Virus record (IMG/VR): IMGVR_UViG_3300029911_000018 | Source of the DNA: an uncultured virus (IMG/VR IMGVR_UViG_3300029911_000018) | Lineage: Duplodnaviria; Heunggongvirae; Uroviricota; Caudoviricetes | Length of the DNA stretch: 64,000 nt | Direction: 5' to 3' (one strand) | In this document: piece by piece, positions 1,728 to 9,097 of the stretch | How the letters are laid out: each line of letters opens with the position of its first letter | Numbering within the stretch: position 1 is the stretch's first letter | Program-made: the position numbers and the translations under genes | The notes under the pieces: generated by a model | Seen by the model: the letters and a program-made list of their open reading frames with translations, nothing else | Told to the model about the DNA's origin: nothing | Database searches by the model: none

Positions 1728-1832
1728 GGTTGGTTATTCCTTTCGGGGTACATCTTCTTCTCGGCGACTTGAAAGTTGAAAACCTTCCTTCCGATTTTCA
1801 CCGTCCCGAACGGTACGCTCTGCCAGACTGAG

Positions 1833-2051
1833 CTACACCCCGATTAACCTCTTCGCATCTTCCGCCGCGTCGATGTCCTCCCAAGCCTTCGCTTGAAAGC
1901 AGTCGTCGCAGTCCACCTTCGTCTCCACAGTGTCAATCTCATGCGTGGTCACCCCTGTGCGGCCACAGTAGGTGACATGCAGCGTGGTGGGCATCCTGTA
2001 CAGACCCTCGGTCGCCATCCCTGTGTAACGTTTGCGTGATAGATGCATCAT
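1833..2051 (-). CDS. hypothetical protein
   Basis: Abuts the stop codon of the release-factor gene. Confidence 0.55.
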   Translation of the reverse strand: MMHLSRKRYTGMATEGLYRMPTTLHVTYCGRTGVTTHEIDTVETKVDCDDCFQAKAWEDIDAAEDAKRLIGV

Positions 2052-2712
2052 TTACCAAATCCCCCGTACGTAGTTTGAGTACGTCCAAACCTGTCCAGTC
2101 ACGTGGTCTGTGACCTTCCCATCCTGCTCCCGGATAGTGCGGCGTTTATCCCCCCGCTGGCCGGTGCCTATCTGCTGGCGACGGTCGGCTACTTCCTTGC
2201 CTACCTTTGCCTCTCGCTCCAACGCTTCCAGCTTAGCACTCAGGATGATGAGAGCCAACTCTTTATTACGATACTGACTGCGTTCCGCCTCACAGCGCAC
2301 CATCAACCCGCTTGGAAGATGATGAACCCGAACTGCGGTTTCAACCTTATTGACGTTCTGCCCACCCTTACCACCACTTCGCATTGTGTCCCATTCAAGG
2401 TCTTTGGGGTCGATGCTGAATGTTGTGGTTACCCTCTCTTCAAAGACGGCTACAGTGATTGTTGATGTCTGGCGTCGGCCTCGTCTTTCGGTCGGCGGGA
2501 CTCGTTGCCACCGATGACCTCCAGACTCATTAGCAAAGACCTGCTCAACGTCTTTCCCCGTTACGCGGAATACTGCAATACCGGGTCGCGTCTCAAGAAT
2601 CTCAACGCTAAAGACCCCTCCGCTGACCCAGCCTTGCATAAATAGCCAACTGGTCAGCCACTAGAAGCTTGGCGTCATCGCCACCTTCTGCTGCTCGAAT
2701 TTCAACAATCAT
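2052..2712 (-). CDS. class I peptide chain release factor (RF1-like, lacking domain 1) with programmed +1 frameshift at 2608-2613
   Basis: Frame 0 MIVEIRAAEGGDDA..RRGL then CTT-TAG-C preceded by GGAGGGGT; +1 frame has E.G.HR.QRVPPTE.RGR.QTST and GGQNVNK. Confidence 0.9.
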
Positions 2713-2725
2713 ACTGCCTCCAAAG

Positions 2726-2802
2726 TGGTTCAGGGAGGTGGACTCGAACCACGCTATTCGTTCGACCTTATGAGGGTGAACGCCATACCATCGGACCCCT
2801 GT
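2726..2802 (-). tRNA. degenerate tRNA(CAT)
   Basis: CTCATAA loop, GTTCGAGTC T-arm, CCA end; D arm poorly formed. Confidence 0.55.
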
Positions 2803-2981: not shown

Positions 2982-3059
2982 TGGTCGGGGTGGAGGGATT
3001 TGAACCCCCGATACCTTGCTCCCAAAGCAAGTGCGTTAGCCAGACTACGCTACACCCCG
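2982..3059 (-). tRNA. tRNA-Pro(TGG)
   Basis: CGGGGTG..CTTGC-TTTGGGA-GCAAG..ACCA. Confidence 0.92.
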
Positions 3060-3176
3060 TTGAATTGCTGTGGGACTCAGACTCTAGGTGGGAACGACCC
3101 ACCGCACTGTACCCCGCTTGATAAGCAGTTGGCCGTTACCCTACTGAACCAGCACGCTCAGGCCACACAGCAAACT

Positions 3177-3252
3177 TGGCCCCCATGGTAGGAGTTGAAC
3201 CTACATCCCTCGGCCTCAACATGCCGGTGCTCTACCGTTGAGCTACATCGGG
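3177..3252 (-). tRNA. tRNA-Asn-like (GTT) with 8-nt anticodon loop
   Basis: Canonical D/T arms, G73-CCA, CGGC-ATGTTGAG-GCCG. Confidence 0.6.
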
Positions 3253-3266
3253 GATAAATCTAAACT

Positions 3267-3343
3267 TGGTCAGCCCGGAGAGATTCGAACTCTCGACCCC
3301 ACCCACCCCAAGGGTGTGCGCTACCAGACTGCGCTACGGGCTG
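3267..3343 (-). tRNA. tRNA-Pro(GGG)
   Basis: CACCC-TTGGGGT-GGGTG anticodon arm, CCA. Confidence 0.92.
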
Positions 3344-3366
3344 AAACTCTACAATACTACAAAACT

Positions 3367-3443
3367 TGGTCAGGGTGAGAGGATTTGAACCTCCGACTTC
3401 TCGTATCCGAAACGAGGACTCTACCAGACTGAGCTACACCCTG
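3367..3443 (-). tRNA. tRNA-Pro(CGG)
   Basis: CTCGT-TTCGGAT-ACGAG anticodon arm, CCA. Confidence 0.92.
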
Positions 3444-3455
3444 ATGGTAAAAACT

Positions 3456-3543
3456 TGGTCGGGGTGAAGGGACTCGAACCCTCAGTGCGCTTAAGCTCCT
3501 GTTTCCAAAACAGGTCGGCTACCATCTACCGATTTACACCCCG
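3456..3543 (-). tRNA. tRNA-Pro(TGG) with long variable arm
   Basis: CCTGT-TTTGGAA-ACAGG, extra arm GCTTAAGC, CCA. Confidence 0.85.
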
Positions 3544-3850: not shown

Positions 3851-4111
3851 ATGAATCTTGAAGACTTCAAAAATCAACTGAGGATGGACATCCGGCGTAT
3901 GCAAGCCGCGTTGGCCGCACTCGAAGGATCAGCAATGGCGGAAACCCCGAAACTATCAGCAAAGACCAAAGAGAAGATTTCCAATAGCATGAAGGCAAAC
4001 TGGGCAGGTGGGCGGAAACGTACCTTATCCAAGGCTGTGAAGATCAAGATCGCGGCCTCACAACGTGCCCGTTGGGCGAAGCAGAAGGAAGCAGCAGCAG
4101 CGGCGGCGTAA
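3851..4111 (+). CDS. small basic protein with repeated KIS..K/R.RW motifs
   Basis: GGAGG RBS; paralog of 4282-4608. Confidence 0.75.
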   Translation: MNLEDFKNQLRMDIRRMQAALAALEGSAMAETPKLSAKTKEKISNSMKANWAGGRKRTLSKAVKIKIAASQRARWAKQKEAAAAAA

Positions 4112-4281: not shown

Positions 4282-4608
4282 ATGGATTTTGACGACATTG
4301 TTAACGAACTCAGGGTTCAGCAGCGCCGGATCAATGCGGCTCTTGTTGCTCTTGTGGGGACGGCTCAGGCCGACGCTCCGGTAACACAACCTGCACCAAA
4401 GATCACTGCAACCCCCAACCACCGTACAACCCGTCGTTCTTCAATGTCTTCAGGAGTGAAGCGGAAGATTTCGCTTGCCATGAAGCAGAACTGGGCAAGC
4501 CGGAAGCCTAAGCTCAAGTTGTCGCCGGAAATCAAGAGCAAGATTTCTTCCTCACAGAAGGCACGCTGGGCGTCGATCAAGGCAGCGGCTCAACAGATGG
4601 CAGCTTAG
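4282..4608 (+). CDS. small basic protein, paralog of 3851-4111
   Basis: GAGGAGG RBS; shared AAL.AL.G and Q.ARWA motifs. Confidence 0.75.
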   Translation: MDFDDIVNELRVQQRRINAALVALVGTAQADAPVTQPAPKITATPNHRTTRRSSMSSGVKRKISLAMKQNWASRKPKLKLSPEIKSKISSSQKARWASIKAAAQQMAA

Positions 4609-5211: not shown

Positions 5212-5709
5212 TTATGCCTGTAATTCCCTTTTACTGTATGTAGAGTAGTATTCGCGAACCTCCATGAGAATCCGACCAAGGTGGTTCAATCCCTCCGGTT
5301 CATGTGGCCCTTGTCTACAAGTCCCATCACACACCCCGAAGAATAGGTCATGCCAATTATTTCCTTCCACCAACTCCGCTGTGAAGGTTGAGATGAGTTT
5401 CCGACGAAGAATAGTTGGGTAGAATTTCTGCATCAGCAAATCCCGCATGATGCCTATGTTCACTTCCTTCCAATCTGGCCGGAGCTTGCCACTGTCTGAA
5501 ATGGCCTTACCCATGCGCTTAGCCCGACCCGCCGTTACCCCGGCGTAGAGAAACTTCTCCCGCTCTTTCAAGTTGAGTGTTTTAGCGGCCTGATACGCAT
5601 GTTCGACTGAAGGATAGGTCACTTCATCCAACACCACACTGCATGGGTAAAAGTTGGAGAGAAACCCCCACGGGTCTTTAAAACGGTCAATCAAAACGGG
5701 CAGGTCCAT
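5212..5709 (-). CDS. NADAR (YbiA-like) family protein
   Basis: FLSNFYP..YPSVEHAYQAAK..LVEGN.W.D.FFG..N.LG.ILMEVR. Confidence 0.92.
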   Translation of the reverse strand: MDLPVLIDRFKDPWGFLSNFYPCSVVLDEVTYPSVEHAYQAAKTLNLKEREKFLYAGVTAGRAKRMGKAISDSGKLRPDWKEVNIGIMRDLLMQKFYPTILRRKLISTFTAELVEGNNWHDLFFGVCDGTCRQGPHEPEGLNHLGRILMEVREYYSTYSKRELQA

Positions 5710-9010: not shown

Positions 9011-9097
9011 TGGTGCGCCCGAAGGGACTCGAACCCATACCCCCTTGCGGGGATTAGCACCTCAAGCTAACGCGGCTACCAATTACGCCACGGGCGC
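9011..9097 (-). tRNA. tRNA-Leu(GAG)
   Basis: TTAGC-TTGAGGT-GCTAA. Confidence 0.92.

Follow-up and report, generated by a model that had tools for sequence, protein, structure and literature searches.

The window analysed in this study, a 64-kb stretch of DNA, is the start of a 75-kb linear virus record (IMGVR_UViG_3300029911_000018, estimated to be 24% complete), and the runs containing it are peat metagenomes. It carries 31 tRNA genes (ARAGORN, default settings) together with phage replication genes. On the minus strand, between positions 2712 and 2052, we identified a gene for a release factor, in which ATG 2712 and 34 sense codons with an internal Shine-Dalgarno-like (SD) sequence lead to CTT-TAG-C and a continuation in the +1 frame. 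The features of the locus are as follows:

2717..2721, minus strand: putative start-codon Shine-Dalgarno sequence GGAGG, 4 nt 5' of the ATG and just past the CCA end of the tRNA-like element
2608..2712, minus strand: ORF1, 34 codons and the gating TAG; start of release factor domain 2, including the tip of helix alpha5
2668..2691, minus strand: helix alpha5-tip motif AEGGDDAK, residues 8-15 (numbering of the alignment)
2617..2621, minus strand: internal SD-like stimulator GGAGG, 3 nt 5' of the slippery codon, spaced as in Salmonella prfB
2607..2613, minus strand: shift site CTT TAG C, with CUU in the P site, UAG in the A site and a weak +4 C; predicted +1 re-pairing on UUU
2052..2609, minus strand: ORF2 in the +1 frame, 185 codons, TAA; remaining part of domain 2, domain 3 and a shortened domain 4
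2490..2498, minus strand: PxT stop-recognition motif, residues 72-74 (RF1 188-190)
2358..2366, minus strand: GGQ catalytic motif, residues 116-118
2726..2802, minus strand: weak tRNA-like element with a CAT anticodon, directly upstream of ATG 2712 (ARAGORN at lowered threshold only; no Rfam match)
2982..3540, minus strand: tRNA-Pro gene array, four Pro genes plus a tRNA whose anticodon loop has 8 nt, on the same strand as the release factor
9011..9097, minus strand: phage tRNA-Leu(GAG), the isoacceptor expected to decode CUU at the shift site (presumed role)

The frame opened by ATG 2712, which is preceded by GGAGG (2721-2717), runs out through GGAGG (2621-2617), GGT, CTT (2613-2611), TAG (2610-2608) and C (2607), while the +1 frame extends without a stop from 2609 as far as the TAA at 2054-2052 (185 codons); the +1-joined product has 219 aa. 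A preliminary description of the window had proposed a prfB-style layout (SD-CTT-TAG-C followed by a +1 frame) for this site, and verification of the coordinates bore this out. The junction is identical (0 differences, 0 gaps) in contigs from three of the four runs compared (X5, X6 and X10), and the relative L247 has the same junction at 82% DNA identity over the gene. The RNA run yielded one contig of 151 nt, lying inside ORF2 at a depth of 2.2 and without coverage of the junction. The cassette pattern occurs only once in the 75-kb record. Transcriptional slippage was considered and is unlikely, because the shift site has only three T; the counts obtained in a promoter and terminator scan were near those of shuffled sequence. 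The predicted junction peptide, GLSVEILETR, precedes a proline, and trypsin usually cuts at the next arginine instead.

The preliminary description had also linked the gene, as a sensor of the translation state, to the upstream Pro array. This link could not be upheld: the array consists of tRNA genes, and among 74 viral loci of the family described below a tRNA is found within 1.5 kb upstream in 27, and a tRNA-Pro in only five. The gene itself lies within a cluster of tRNA genes. The array member with the anticodon loop of 8 nt (3177-3252, minus strand; gttg according to ARAGORN, 49.9 bits in Rfam) is possibly a four-base decoder or a degenerate tRNA-Asn. At 1763-1836 (minus strand) there is a tRNA-Pro(CGG)-like 5' half whose T arm is seemingly replaced by a longer hairpin (lowered threshold only); the output of ARAGORN run with introns at low threshold was mostly noise. 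Two paralogous genes (3851-4111 and 4282-4608, plus strand), located on the strand opposite to the tRNA array, encode small Lys/Ala/Arg-rich proteins without a Pfam match, which give the impression of nucleic-acid-binding proteins. A NADAR-domain gene is present at 5212-5709 (minus strand), and apparent homologs of it neighbour the release factor in 8 of 87 loci.

By its sequence matches, the product is an RF1-derived short release factor without domain 1. Pfam places PCRF at residues 2-87 (profile positions 103-194 of 194) and RF-1 at residues 97-203. In NCBIfam, prfA matches best (E = 3e-63, profile positions 107-317 of 347), whose 214 bits fall under the cut-off of 400 because the N-terminal part is missing; the prfH model scores 110.6 bits with the same 219-aa product. 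The best sequence match among solved structures is RF1 (E = 8e-48), with an alignment beginning at about RF1 residue 110, and the family groups with RF1 against RF2 and PrfH (FastTree support 0.986, with only three outgroup rows). These matches agree with the earlier assignment of the protein as an RF1-type factor with PxT and GGQ motifs that lacks the N-terminal domain 1. No match to domain 1 was found upstream, where the frame 5' of the ATG runs through the tRNA-like element, and the C-terminus is approximately 25-30 residues shorter than that of bacterial RF1. Domain 1 is dispensable for peptide release and required for RF3 (PMC1586002), and the product should therefore release peptides without RF3.

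The roles of the RF1 stop-reading residues have been described (Q185 and T198 act on the third base; PMC3974865). The equivalents of RF1 G120, Q185, P188, T190 and T198 are kept in this copy, whereas E123 and H197 are not, being D13 and Q81. At the tip of helix alpha5 the family-specific residues E9, D13 and K15 replace RF1 T119, E123 and A125; in a sample chosen by an ORF2 motif, E9 is present in 90/90 homologs, D13 in 89/90 and K or R at position 15 in 87/90. T190 is kept in 102 of 146 family rows and is N in 37, while H197 is changed to Q in 45 of 146, this copy among them. The hairpin is shortened by about six residues, with loss of the positions of RF2 E170 and E172, and the position of RF2 E167 remains acidic. 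The mean net charge is +7.1 in the 146 family rows versus +2.9 in 12 RF1s, and none of the full-length rows of the family lacks GGQ.

When viral contigs were scanned at the protein level, 77 loci were confirmed in 90 stretches, and pattern scans added 64 viral, at least 120 metagenome and 100 genome loci. We left out 48 pattern matches without a release-factor match, 14 loci without an N-terminal match and three RF2- or PrfH-like loci, and reserved 79 further cellular loci as an RF1 outgroup pool. The resulting N-terminal-motif set comprises 298 loci, 205 of them distinct, and 187 of the 205 are gated by a stop codon: 142 in the +1 class (UGA 98, UAG 43, UAA 1) and the others by an in-frame UGA (44) or UAG (1); 12 are continuous and 6 broken or undetermined. 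Because this set was selected on an N-terminal motif, a second one, blind to the junction, was drawn by an ORF2 motif. It contained 101 viral loci (4 unscored, 7 duplicates), i.e. 90 distinct homologs, of which 88 are stop-gated, 69 by +1 frameshift (UGA 51, UAG 16, one of these with TTT, and UAA 2) and 19 by an in-frame stop (UGA 18, UAG 1). The homologs continuous in one frame that the preliminary description had named as grounds for suspecting a sequencing indel are confined in this set to the two remaining genes.

The reading frame of each homolog was assigned by profile score, and the presence of CTT directly before the stop in 142/142 distinct +1 homologs, as against 10% of the Leu codons downstream, is therefore a result and not a filter; the conservation of the cassette envisaged earlier is borne out. 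The +4 base is C in 39/43 UAG and 73/98 UGA +1 homologs, and in the in-frame UGA versions it is A (29/44) or C (15/44). Of the 142 +1 homologs, 105 have an SD match of at least 5 nt, compared with roughly 9% of control windows. Arg residues beneath the SD are encoded by CGG in 101/111 cases (background 545/2831, 19%) and AGG in 77/82 (background 193/2831, 7%). The CUU and the SD codons are selected at the RNA level. Moreover, the break falls at the same codon in most of the 142 homologs. The signal is real, programmed and conserved, and not an error of assembly.

The 45 in-frame-gated genes contain 48 internal stops, all in codons 34-66, and 72 Trp codons after codon 70, all of them TGG. These phages are therefore not simply recoded, and genome-wide recoding was rejected as the reason for the stops of this class. 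The commonest in-frame UGA aligns with RF1 W144, which suggests that this type of gate may have originated by a TGG to TGA change. The in-frame-gated genes L006, L007, L008 and L249 are nested among frameshifting ones and have CTA, CTC or TAT in place of CTT; the sisters L006 and L007 differ at the gate (UGA versus UAG), and L008 has also lost the PxT loop. In the virus record studied here, gene ends use all three stops (TAA 36, TGA 13, TAG 10, according to a rough gene caller), and no credible suppressor tRNA was found in its 75 kb, which represent 24% of the genome by estimate. A suppressor tRNA lies within 10 kb of the release factor in 5/77 viral loci; three match the gate codon and two do not. 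Amber (CTA) tRNAs lie close to five copies, three gated by UAG and two by UGA (L454, 9365-9438, lowered threshold; L633, L654, L653 and L701), and two TCA tRNAs near the UGA-gated copy L655.

Cellular copies belong mainly to Myxococcota (51/75), and cultured carriers include Nannocystis exedens DSM 71, Minicystis rosea DSM 24000, Archangium gephyra and Pyxidicoccus fallax. The strict cassette pattern was found in 0/300 other genomes sampled from the phylum of genome G003, and the cellular copy is therefore sporadic. It is an extra gene, in contrast to bacterial prfA: among 14 genomes with a cellular copy, 12 have a further long RF1-type match and all 14 one of RF2 type, types being assigned from score and length alone. 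Genome G014 (L378) contains three ungated copies on different contigs, and in G012 (L413) an in-frame-UGA copy has two C-terminal fragments directly alongside. The Nannocystis loci L342, L372, L374 and L379 have constant chromosomal neighbours and lie about 1.3 kb from a gene which, from its motif, we take to be clpS-like; the constant neighbours suggest that these copies are domesticated.

The distribution of UAG and UGA at the gate was examined in detail. On a 120-tip ORF2 tree, which is poorly resolved owing to the short protein, the two kinds of copies interleave, with 29 changes of codon compared with 29.3 for shuffled labels. The share of UAG at the gate is close to that at neighbouring gene ends (0.286 vs 0.288 in viral loci; 0.284 vs 0.327 in cellular ones), while UAA is depleted (2/58 vs 26%, p = 4e-6; 1/68 vs 11%, p = 0.004), the background stops having been counted with our own rough gene caller over at most 20 kb per locus. 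As the UAG:UGA ratio of the gate is that of ordinary gene ends, UAG is no specially selected mirror of prfB. A co-variation analysis of residues and gate codon (29 UAG vs 73 UGA proteins, 1614 tests) singled out nothing but the junction residue; T190N and H197Q occur evenly in UAG and UGA copies, and no decoding residue tracks the gate codon. UAG-gated cellular copies were found in UAG-richer neighbourhoods (0.445 vs 0.28, p = 0.007 uncorrected), but this trend is not significant in phages (p = 0.18) and is lost in independent pairs (median p = 0.375), and tuning of the gate to local stop usage was not adopted as an explanation.

According to the preliminary description, UAG as the stop would place the gene under autoregulation by RF1 activity. 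For this copy the proposal holds up: the equivalents of Q185, P188, T190 and T198 are kept, self-limitation is therefore plausible, and from our analysis its UAG gate should respond to RF1-type activity. It fails as a rule for the family, in which most homologs have UGA at the gate with the same decoding residues.

We propose that the locus encodes a short RF1-derived factor behind an SD-CUU-UAG-C gate, which would be made when termination is short and whose product would shut its own synthesis down; we estimate the probability of this reading at roughly 0.65. With the stop in its A site and tRNA-Leu paired to CUU, a ribosome would either terminate after 34 residues or slip +1. By analogy with prfB, the internal SD would help tRNA-Leu to slip from CUU to UUU, a step that would compete with termination. 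Slow termination at the gate stop would thus permit synthesis of the full factor only when termination capacity is short. The product, presumably active and RF3-independent, would supplement the host factors during heavy phage translation and, once supplied, would close the gate, which would act as a feedback valve on an auxiliary release factor. Since UAG and UGA are interchangeable across the family, the loop would have to close on either codon. Closure may be direct, with the factor reading both codons, or indirect, with UAA and UAG work taken off the host RF2; we lean slightly towards the direct route. Twelve of the 205 homologs are ungated, which speaks against this reading.

A broader hypothesis is that the family represents a natural release factor of bacterial type reading all three stops: a minimal RF1 derivative, RF3-independent, spread by large phages, kept by some Myxococcota and provided with a self-closing gate in two builds, by +1 frameshift or by in-frame readthrough. 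In that case, termination by the product at both codons would leave the gate free to drift from UAG to UGA and back. The hypothesis is tentative, and we give it somewhat less than an even chance. It may be favoured by T119E, E123D and A125K, by the variability of T190 and H197, by the loss of the RF2 E170/E172 positions and by the higher positive charge; charge-reversing mutations at RF2 E170/E172 confer activity on UAG, with false stops at UGG as the price (PMC7530605). Against it would speak the core residues G120, Q185, P188, T190 and T198, which are as in a plain UAA/UAG reader, and the acidic E167 position.

Other explanations were weighed against the self-closing gate. An unlikely one is that the product is a rescue or counter-defence factor similar to PrfH, in which case the gate would sense the loss of host release-factor function, through host defence or damage, and the product would free stalled ribosomes instead of acting at normal stops. 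The domain-1-less build, the remodelled alpha5 tip and the positive charge (+7.1 vs +2.9) are compatible with such a role, as are the presence of an RNA-ligase-like ORF (the name is our own reading) within 10 kb in 12/77 viral loci and of at least three tRNA genes in 39/74. However, the motifs are PxT and GG, not SXY and GP, and the RF1 stop-reading residues are conserved. Neither RtcB nor a homolog of the ligase-like ORF was found in this record (24% complete), and a comparison of 87 loci showed no partner gene shared across the family. In PrfH loci rtcB lies directly upstream, whereas a tRNA-like element occupies this place in the present locus. In the closest large phages the ligase-like ORF is adjacent to the release factor (L001, 3661-4269).

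An improbable alternative is a strict mirror image of prfB, i.e. an RF1-specific factor with UAG selected for autoregulation by RF1 activity. It would account for the UAG gate together with the intact PxT, Q185 and T198 equivalents, and UAG is likewise present in L247, L005 and L002, which are among its five closest relatives on the tree. Yet the sister genes L001 and L003, 62-69% identical to this one, have a UGA gate with the same loop, and UGA predominates among the +1 homologs (51/69). Moreover, prfB wholly excludes the non-cognate stop (0/8,164 cassettes with TAG in the data of PMC12421855), and the present family does not exclude UGA.

Even less probable is a constitutive leak valve, in which the gate would do no more than hold a toxic factor at a fixed fraction of its expression, with no feedback. 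Any weak stop context would suffice for this purpose, consistent with the in-frame UGA versions with A or C at +4 (29 and 15 of 44) and with the apparent neutrality of UAG and UGA; a neutral ratio of the two is equally expected from a plain leak valve or a rescue factor. However, stop-dependent gates compete with release factors, which entails some feedback if the product reads the codon concerned, and a weak SD or start codon would be simpler, yet 88/90 homologs use a stop, by two mechanisms.

It is very improbable that the gene yields two separate polypeptides, with ORF1 as a peptide of its own and ORF2 self-starting at ATG 2639, which opens a 195-codon ORF (2639-2052) in the +1 frame: 57/142 homologs have no +1-frame start codon before the junction, no SD precedes ATG 2639, and the invariant CTT and selected SD codons would remain unexplained. 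A sequencing indel or pseudogene, suggested by the interruption of the gene, has a negligible probability in view of the three other assemblies identical at the junction, the shared break codon of most of the 142 homologs and the intact GGQ of the full-length rows.

The closest parallel to the signal is the +1 frameshift of prfB, the RF2 gene (PMC12421855, PMC5009743, PMC3711429), with which it shares the SD-N3-CUU-stop-C layout and spacing (compared with Salmonella prfB), the invariant CUU, the preferred +4 C and the rarity of UAA. It differs from prfB in that the product is of the RF1 type, the gate stop is UAG here and UGA, UAG or UAA across the family, and in-frame UGA versions occur. Furthermore, the shift site lies in domain 2, opposite RF1 W144 and RF2 F161, not at codon 25-26, and the signal therefore probably arose independently, by convergence. 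With bacterial RF1 (prfA) the factor shares the PxT, Q185, T198 and GGQ equivalents and the best family and structure match, but it has no domain 1, a length of 219 aa instead of about 360 aa, a remodelled alpha5 tip, a shortened hairpin and recoded expression.

A viral class-I release factor with a comparable gate is known from Mimivirus, as R726, and from Megavirus, as mg280, where UGA readthrough and a CUU UAG C / CUU UAA C frameshift are involved and the cassette switches between UAG and UAA (PMC3521657). That factor has an eRF1/aRF1 fold, serves in a eukaryotic host and combines both events in one gene, whereas members of the present family are of the bacterial RF1 type and usually have one gate, which may be of either kind. 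Since the Mimivirus eRF1 already uses CUU UAG C, the device itself is not new; what is new is its occurrence in an RF1-type factor. PrfH (RFH), at about 200 aa, likewise is a class-I factor that has GGQ and no domain 1, but it has SXY and GP motifs (PMC1586002, PMC6514570) where the present factor, in contrast to the PrfH-like L062, has PxT and GG; PMC6514570 nowhere mentions phages. Recoded phages (Lak, Agate and Jade; 10.1101/2021.08.26.457843) and huge phages (PMC7162821) likewise carry RF1/RF2 among their translation genes, which the accessible parts of both sources name without truncation or gating. Recoded phages show genome-wide stop reassignment, whereas in the present phage all three stops end genes. 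We found no published description of the family, and the supplements of PMC7162821 and 10.1101/2021.08.26.457843 may list its genes as RF1.

In the portions of the literature consulted, namely reviews and a survey of 12,000 genomes (PMC12421855, PMC5009743), recoding control is confined to RF2 and no UAG prfB cassette is recorded; the relevant part of PMC3711429 treats, among release factors, the RF2 cluster only. An early in-frame UGA in RF2 genes, or a UAG counterpart in RF1 genes, was called unknown in the 2016 review (PMC5009743, in the part seen). The family described here has recoding outside RF2, a UAG cassette and early in-frame stops, that is, all three features held to be absent. Gene callers are likely to annotate such gated genes as fragments.

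To conclude, the family offers naturally occurring sister genes, frameshifted at UAG, UGA or UAA, gated in frame or not gated at all, as material for studying the purpose of the prfB device, and the cultured Myxococcota carriers make the family testable without a phage. Should the factor turn out to read UAG as well as UGA, it would bear directly on the question of why bacteria keep two release factors, as well as on the toxicity trade-off of RF2 evolved toward omnipotence (PMC7530605).
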